The notes beneath the pieces are model-generated. The model was not told the origin of the DNA. It was given only the letters and a program-made list of their open reading frames with translations, and did no database searches. A program made the position numbers and the translations under genes. DNA of 64,000 nucleotides from Eledone cirrhosa. Lineage: Eukaryota. The stretch lies in NCBI GenBank assembly GCA_964016885.1, contig OZ024743.1, forward strand, positions 60,512,001 to 60,576,000. The letters run 5' to 3'. Below are positions 52,315 to 52,943 of this stretch, in pieces. Positions within the stretch are counted from its first letter, which is position 1. Every line of letters starts with the position of its first letter.

Positions 52315-52943
52315 ATATTAATATAAGCAGTAAGAGCCATATGAATAGGTAAATATTTAAATTATATTTTTTAATATATTTTAAAAAATTGGTTGAATTT
52401 TGCTTGTTCTGCATATATTAATATTATAGTTCTGGTATGTCAAATTGATACCATAGAACAACCTTAAATCATAGACAACCTATGTATTTCCAGGGGTACT
52501 TAGTACCCACGGGCTTACTAACTTCTTCTATCACCCTCCATTTGTTGAGAACAATCATGTTGATTCTATTTAGCTGCTATTTTTAGTAACGAGATAGACA
52601 ACACGTCTATGTTTTTCCCGCTTTAACCTCGGGTAGTTCACGTACAGGTCATTTTTCGGCCTTTTGGATCTGTGCTAGCTGGCAGATAACAATATATTTT
52701 ATCGTTCCTGGGTCTTTAGCCCTAGGAAACGAAAATGCTTCTCTGATGAGCCTTGATTTTCCATTAGAAATCCATTGGGTCTCTGGTGTTTTACAAGGCG
52801 AAACCGATCGGTAAGAGCCATATGAATAGGTAAATATTTAAATTATATTTTTTAATTTATTTTAAAAAATTGGTTGAATTTTGCTTGTTCTGCTTATATT
52901 AATATTATAGTTCTGGTATGTCAAATTGATACCATACTTCTTC
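52315..52943 (+). mobile_element. Non-coding retrozyme-like element: 481-nt HHR-delimited monomer plus 125-nt repeat
   Basis: Direct repeat 52330-52454 / 52811-52935 starting at the HHR GTA triplet; 16-nt 5' inversion; (TA)n flanks. Confidence 0.88.
52735..52821 (+). ncRNA. Type I hammerhead ribozyme
   Basis: gcttct-CTGATGA-gccttg..caaggc-GAAA-ccgatcgg-TA-agagc. Confidence 0.9.

Follow-up and report, generated by a model that had tools for sequence, protein, structure and literature searches.

A young, non-coding hammerhead retrozyme family of Eledone cirrhosa with two fixed ends, probably copied into (TA)n by Penelope-like machinery

Organization of the locus

The window, that is, the whole 64,000-nt stretch of Eledone cirrhosa DNA that was analysed, contains a tandemly repeated element inserted between (TA)n tracts on its left and right, next to a Penelope-like element (PLE). 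Its most conspicuous feature is a direct repeat, already reported in a first-pass annotation of the sequence: GTAAGAGCCAT occurs at 52330 and again at 52811, a spacing of 481 nt, and the repeated segments (52330-52455 and 52811-52936) are 126 nt long, close to the roughly 125 nt given there, with 2 mismatches. The same annotation described the piece at 52315-52330 as the reverse complement of 52890-52905, which proved exact, and the element as devoid of coding capacity between (TA)n tracts, which was upheld; the only stop-to-stop open reading frames (ORFs) of at least 100 aa that touch the copy are frames running through the TA repeats. A search of the element for tRNA genes found none. Features are listed in Table 1, and unit positions are numbered from the base after the predicted ribozyme cut (position 1 = 52333).

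Table 1. Coordinates of the window copy, its flanks and the neighbouring element
Feature	Position	Strand	Basis
Putative short inverted arm, 16 nt; outer end at family site B (unit ~92)	52315..52330	-	Exact reverse complement of 52890-52905; outer end common to B arms elsewhere
Main arm: GTA preceding the cut, then a whole unit, part of the next (positions 1-123) and the site-A end	52330..52943	+	63 arms have site A as their outer end
Non-coding monomer of 481 nt between successive cut sites, 35.6% GC	52333..52813	+	Period of 481 in arrays
Predicted type I hammerhead, cut after 52813; the sole complete one in the window copy	52737..52818	+	Constrained fold, covariation
"Tail" between putative priming sites B (~52424) and A (~52529-52531), two hairpins	52424..52531	+	Arm ends at unit ~92 and ~197-199; fold; kept in sister families
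Junction of 66-nt internal deletion (unit 124-189), just inside the site-A end	52936..52944	+	Single genome match allowing up to 1 mismatch
(TA)n target, left flank	52216..52314	.	Sequence
(TA)n-rich target, right flank	52945..53365	.	Sequence
Separate 5'-truncated PLE with RT and GIY-YIG, interrupted by a single stop codon and a single frameshift; Hydra-type motifs; its end is a short site of its own	49745..52215	-	Young high-copy family

The main arm starts 2-3 nt before the predicted cut and so includes TA, and perhaps G, of the sequence preceding it; that G also belongs to the inverted piece. At the other end, the sequence passes from unit position 123 to positions 190-197 (CTTCTTCT), the normal end of the family, across a deletion that is unique in the genome. 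The earlier description of a copy of about 1.25 turns has to be revised on this account: the overhang is one of 197 nt, apparently set by a fixed priming site, and measures about 125 nt because 66 nt within it have been lost. The 16-nt inverted piece is, by its outer end and orientation, a putative second reverse-transcribed arm of the B type, albeit a very short one. With such an arm, a unique deletion and one ribozyme only, the window copy is damaged and likely a dead-end insertion.

Other elements of the window include, at 12582-12774 (+), a hammerhead-bearing piece of the related L065-type retrozyme family, which ends at the equivalent of site B, and a compact type I hammerhead at 55391-55435 (+) that is part of another element and matched RF00163 with 31.7 bits, below the cut-off of 34. 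Matches to RVT_1 or zf-RVT lie in other retrotransposon fragments at 5079-5975, 7889-9106, and 45237-46136.

The predicted hammerhead ribozyme

The second GTA had been taken as the cleavage triplet of a hammerhead ribozyme, and the predicted fold agrees. It is of type I, with stem I GCTTCT/AGAGC, the core CTGATGA...GAAA, a long stem II and stem III ACC-GATC-GGT, and places the triplet at 52811-52813, so that the predicted cut falls after 52813, equivalent to 52332. The constrained catalytic fold has a free energy of -20.1 kcal/mol, against -23.7 kcal/mol for the local minimum, a gap of 3.6 kcal/mol that weighs against the mechanism proposed below. In an alignment of eight sequences from the 481-nt and related families the helices covary, with two-sided changes in 10 of 25 pairs (reached by none of 500 shuffles) and 85.9% of cells able to pair (slid controls, 30-45%), although the structure was drawn from the window's own sequence and the test therefore favours it. 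The core is intact in 93 of the 97 parsed copies. The hammerhead was absent among the 150 of 190 Rfam matches listed. Each repeat unit carries a type I hammerhead that is predicted, from these models, to cut itself. In a single contig of organism B, what we take to be a tRNA-like sequence is joined immediately upstream of the pre-ribozyme hairpin (before window position 52703).

A dispersed family of tandem units

A genome-wide BLAST search with the monomer, as the first-pass annotation had suggested, established that it is multi-copy, with at least 100 matches. Exact copies of the ribozyme core number 82 in the 3.0-Gb genome, the motif at unit positions 174-197 occurs 109 times, and motifs common to older relatives occur 387 and 328 times. 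The 76 loci examined were drawn from the best BLAST matches and the first 100 matches listed in each search, and the set therefore leans towards young copies on the largest contigs. Units are arranged head to tail in arrays of up to 7.4, and at 23 of the 76 loci a single arm holds 2-7 complete ribozymes. The family is dispersed, non-coding and low in GC, and its unit was present, with many relatives, in the contig sets of four sequencing runs. By these features the window element is one insertion of a young, dispersed, protein-free tandem family that would be classed as a metazoan non-LTR retrozyme.

A sister family with a 525-nt unit is about 75% identical and has the same layout, which is also common to the more distant L065 type, and the tail hairpin region is kept in sister families. 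In the 525-nt family (L034:5672-6445, L117-L146) the triplet at the cut is GTT, the basal pair of stem II is U-U, and both ends, A and B, have homologous counterparts. The flanks of L031, L039, L048, L049, L050, L055, L081, L119 and others hold many more type I hammerhead families, each distinct, making this a hammerhead-rich genome. As a test for an snRNA-type promoter, the units were compared with the -90 to -15 segments of six snRNA genes (two U2, four U6); local similarity did not exceed that of shuffles (all p ≥ 0.07; third-family rows, whose query crossed a head-to-head junction, were left out).

Two fixed ends and their pairing

The outer ends of arms fall at two places about 105 nt apart, site A at unit positions 194-199 (63 arms) and site B at 86-96 (51 arms). 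At both sites the last bases show AT microhomology with (TA)n, which abuts 111 of the 114 typed ends. Where two arms stand head to head, one is of type A and the other of type B in 43 of 45 loci, two of which (L101 and L102) are mutual duplicates; the remaining two have an interrupted partner, and neither AA nor BB was seen. At three more loci, the window copy included, a partner shorter than 45 nt was found by eye. The same rule was followed by the sister family (A+B in 5 of 5), and of 14 further, older loci at 69-95% identity 8 are clearly A+B, 3 ambiguous and 3 single arms, none being AA or BB. The lengths of the two arms at a locus showed no correlation (rho -0.23, p 0.13, n 42).

Fixed 3' ends with an optional tail, variable 5' truncation, an inverted second arm, a one-sided tail and a (TA)n target are all Penelope-type marks, and these insertions suggest that the retrozyme is very probably moved by PLE machinery. 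That the element is mobilised in trans by a PLE, as had been proposed at the outset, is likely from these marks together with its non-coding, multi-copy status. We are also rather confident, on the pairing of ends, that sites A and B would be primed together in one event.

5' ends relative to the cut

The 5' ends were analysed in 120 hand-curated arms; secondary pieces of L032, L034, L038, L081, and L104, the diverged L082 and the duplicate L102 were dropped, and three short arms were added. The initial proposal that the copy starts exactly at its own cleavage site, from which a self-cleaved RNA had been argued, was not sustained. The window copy reads through the cut, and only 6 of the 120 arms start within -4 to +2 (expected 1.7-2.4). 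When the ends of these arms were mapped, as had been advised, 97 of 120 lay more than 15 nt from the cut, scattered round the whole unit. The 23 that lie within 15 nt represent a roughly twofold enrichment over the 8.8 expected from a uniform stop rate or the 12.4 of a length-jitter null (p 0.0013), and 13 fell at +1 to +15 where 4.4 were expected, the distance windows having been chosen post hoc with the data already seen.

An unambiguous start at +1 was found in L038 only, and L070 is compatible with one, while the window copy and three others have 1-4 template-matching bases from before the cut. The B arm of L038 (3052-3659) extends precisely to the first base downstream of the cut, where it turns back on itself for 30 nt. 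Ends near the cut are a mild bias of the family and not the rule, possibly due to stalls in the ribozyme stems or to run-off on cleaved RNA. The excess at +1 to +15 and the exact stop of L038 suggest that some templates had a free cleaved 5' end.

The nature of the template

Arms longer than one unit make up 51 of the 120, and 18 are longer than two. Passes through the cut site are free of indels within 8 nt in 126 of 128 cases. Variants present in at least four loci were fixed throughout the passes of a locus in 199 cases and mixed in 22 (the A/T tract at 28-57 left out); those private to a locus were mixed 84 times and fixed 7 times, in L031 and L035 across both arms, and the fixed ones could derive from an unsampled parent array that was already homogeneous. 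Between the two arms of one locus, 16 of 635 diagnostic sites (2.5%, 35 loci) are mismatched, compared with 8.1 +/- 1.3% for age-matched arms elsewhere, and the 17 youngest two-arm loci gave 6 mismatches against a null of 11.3 (p=0.047), a weak same-template signal. The pattern points to one type of template per insertion and, apparently, repeated passage through a monomer.

A circular RNA, as the first-pass annotation had suggested, is on balance the favoured template over a partly cleaved linear multimer, because arms reach 7.4 units, the cut is nearly always crossed without indels, and variants are fixed across units. Other observations go against this part of the proposal, namely the run-off-like ends, the 7.4-unit array of L045, and L058, where one variant is split 2+2. 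In L045 (2989-6551) one variant is found in rounds 1 and 4, a period of three that would fit a trimer template or a later duplication; a single monomer circle explains neither locus. A further point against the circle is that, in the portion of the study available, a PLE in vitro used mainly uncleaved RNA (PMC11167929).

The best of the alternatives retains dual priming by the same PLE, the template being a partly cleaved linear multimer from an existing array, on which arms would run off at the cleaved 5' end or stop earlier and uniformity would come from young sources or later homogenisation. It would accommodate the in vitro preference, the period-3 variant, the exact +1 stop of L038 and the excess of ends at +1 to +15, which holds even for long arms (L045, L086, L093, L067), and it predicts exact junctions as well as a circle does. 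However, daughters would be capped in length by their parents, yet the median arm is shorter than one unit and at only 7 of the 76 loci does an arm hold at least three ribozymes; the fixation of subfamily variants across units also goes against it, and no unit-ordered variant pattern common to two loci was noticed by eye. We regard this explanation as unlikely, though deserving of serious consideration. Much less credible is a cleaved linear monomer, with arrays arising when the reverse transcriptase, on reaching the 5' end, switches to a 3' end, either that of the monomer just copied or that of a different one: the six ends at -4 to +2 would fit, but the 126 indel-free junction passes do not, nor do the haplotypes common to the units of a locus, nor the absence of an A>G skew, looked for as a scar of RNA editing, in the variants specific to single units (8 A>G, 13 T>C).

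The adjacent Penelope-like element

The family of the adjacent PLE is represented by 40 scored copies at 99-100%, and an intact ORF of 709 aa was found in L222, with RWR, DKT, and CxCX5C motifs and no CCHH motif. Its features (RWK-like motif, DKT, CxCX5C linker, no CCHH, short single ORF, (TA)n targets) would place it in the Hydra clade, an assignment made by comparing motifs in the L222 translation, not a tree, with the description in the available part of PMC8557442. Pfam gave no matches for the PLE pieces of the window or the intact L222 ORF. At 49770-49830 (-) of the window this family has a predicted hammerhead-like fold, the core of which reads CAGAAGA, not CUGANGA, in all 35 matching copies.

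One end of this PLE is short and the other carries a tail of about 90 nt, and all 15 head-to-head pairs, found by eye at 13 of the 26 loci examined, combine a short with a tailed end, although the pair in L223 can alternatively be read as short plus short. An apparent B-B pair on C28 was left out of the count, its flanks being duplicated too. The first-pass annotation had named the adjacent type as an example of a possible mobiliser. It does behave like the retrozyme in pairing unlike ends, but no nucleotide homology between the family and the 481-nt unit was detected; by analogy, it is a plausible candidate partner.

No ORF for RT and GIY-YIG lies in cis in the unit. The earlier question of whether the monomer ever follows a PLE ORF can be answered for the 76 loci: at none is it the ordinary pseudo-LTR of such an ORF, and a single chimeric join occurs, in L059 (2805-2810), where the 3' UTR of a different PLE runs straight into a retrozyme arm, which replaces that element's own ribozyme and end, possibly through a template switch between two RNAs. 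That PLE was rejected as a parent, the join being a one-off; its 9 other loci run into their own ribozyme and end. A PLE with a pseudo-LTR homologous to the unit was found neither in the fetched loci nor in the window, and a profile of three retrozyme families, run against the fetched DNA, gave no homologue linked to a PLE (best E 0.049). The idea that the unit is nevertheless the ordinary pseudo-LTR of an autonomous PLE still to be found, with arrays as by-products of DNA-level amplification, can appeal to the relation of Xenopus retrozymes to pLTRs (bioRxiv 10.64898/2026.07.22.740005, available part), to the L059 unit directly behind a PLE 3' UTR, and to the fact that the loci read are 76 of several hundred places, but is highly improbable given the uniqueness of that join, PLE fragments near other loci that are wrongly oriented or set off by (TA)n, and ORF-less head-to-tail units with fixed outer ends, which are not expected from DNA-level expansion.

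Proposed mechanism

The reading we prefer, and consider somewhat probable as a whole, is that of a young non-coding 481-nt hammerhead retrozyme copied into (TA)n by a Penelope-like RT/endonuclease that primes at two set positions of an RNA, probably a circular monomer. A locus with at least two ribozymes would be transcribed and the RNA would cleave itself to monomers, which would then be ligated into circles. The PLE protein, likely a dimer, would nick (TA)n on both strands and, on one template, one RT would prime at site A (~197) while its partner used site B (~92), in both cases through base pairing over a few A/T positions. Each RT would extend for 14-3560 nt, going round the circle if needed, with stops somewhat commoner near the ribozyme, and microhomology would join the two cDNAs head to head. 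For the window copy, the B arm would have halted after 16 nt and the A arm, in its second pass, 2-3 nt beyond the cut. More tentatively, we propose that the Hydra-type Penelope dimer may be obligately asymmetric, gripping one circular ribozyme RNA while one subunit starts at A and the other, on the opposite strand of the (TA)n break, at B, both rolling round the circle, so that each insertion would be the two-armed rolling-circle product of a single RNA.

Comparison with known systems

The comparisons below refer to those parts of the cited sources that were available. Metazoan non-LTR retrozymes (Cervera and de la Pena 2020, PMC7229834) resemble the 481-nt family in having a type I hammerhead per unit, a low-GC non-coding tandem repeat, no LTR, and PLEs alongside, and the family would, at the level of sequence, fall within their definition. 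A circRNA template and mobilisation by PLEs were proposed in that study. The unit of 481 nt is longer than the 170-400 nt given there but within the 51-972 bp of Li, Clavereau, and Pollet 2026 (bioRxiv 10.64898/2026.07.22.740005). In contrast to the former study, the present analysis mapped a pair of fixed ends, the strict joining of unlike ends and the use of (TA)n as target, for a family known from DNA alone. Dependence on PLEs was concluded by Li et al. as it is here, but from co-occurrence and pLTR homology, with arrays attributed to local amplification, whereas the present case is built on insertion anatomy and no homologous pLTR was found. Of nine predicted Xenopus elements in their study, one cleaved.

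PLEs of the Hydra clade (Craig et al. 2021, PMC8557442) share with the retrozyme loci an inverted, 5'-truncated second arm, a tail at one end and (TA)n targets, and the tail is described as often present at one end only. The tails are longer in E. cirrhosa, about 105 nt in the retrozyme and about 90 nt in the adjacent PLE, compared with 30-40 nt in that report, and the retrozyme also differs in lacking an ORF. The anole PLE PAc, examined in vitro (Frangieh et al. 2024, PMC11167929), has two internal RT start sites that bound the tail, as proposed for the 481-nt family; both target strands were cut and extended, and a dimer was predicted. However, in PAc the start sites were not seen to differ between strands or to have homology to the target, whereas in the 481-nt family the arms are always unlike and both sites have AT microhomology to (TA)n. 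A survey of the literature by title and abstract, with subscription papers and bioRxiv supplements outside its scope, turned up no mapping of paired fixed ends for a retrozyme; what is added here is a counted unlike-end rule and its occurrence in an ORF-less element. The copying of animal retrozyme circles into tandem DNA by PLEs is proposed, without being shown, in the available text of the papers cited above. The 481-nt family offers mapped start sites, a strict unlike-end rule common to an autonomous family with an intact ORF, and a substrate of 481 nt, which together make the PLE copying step directly testable in vitro.
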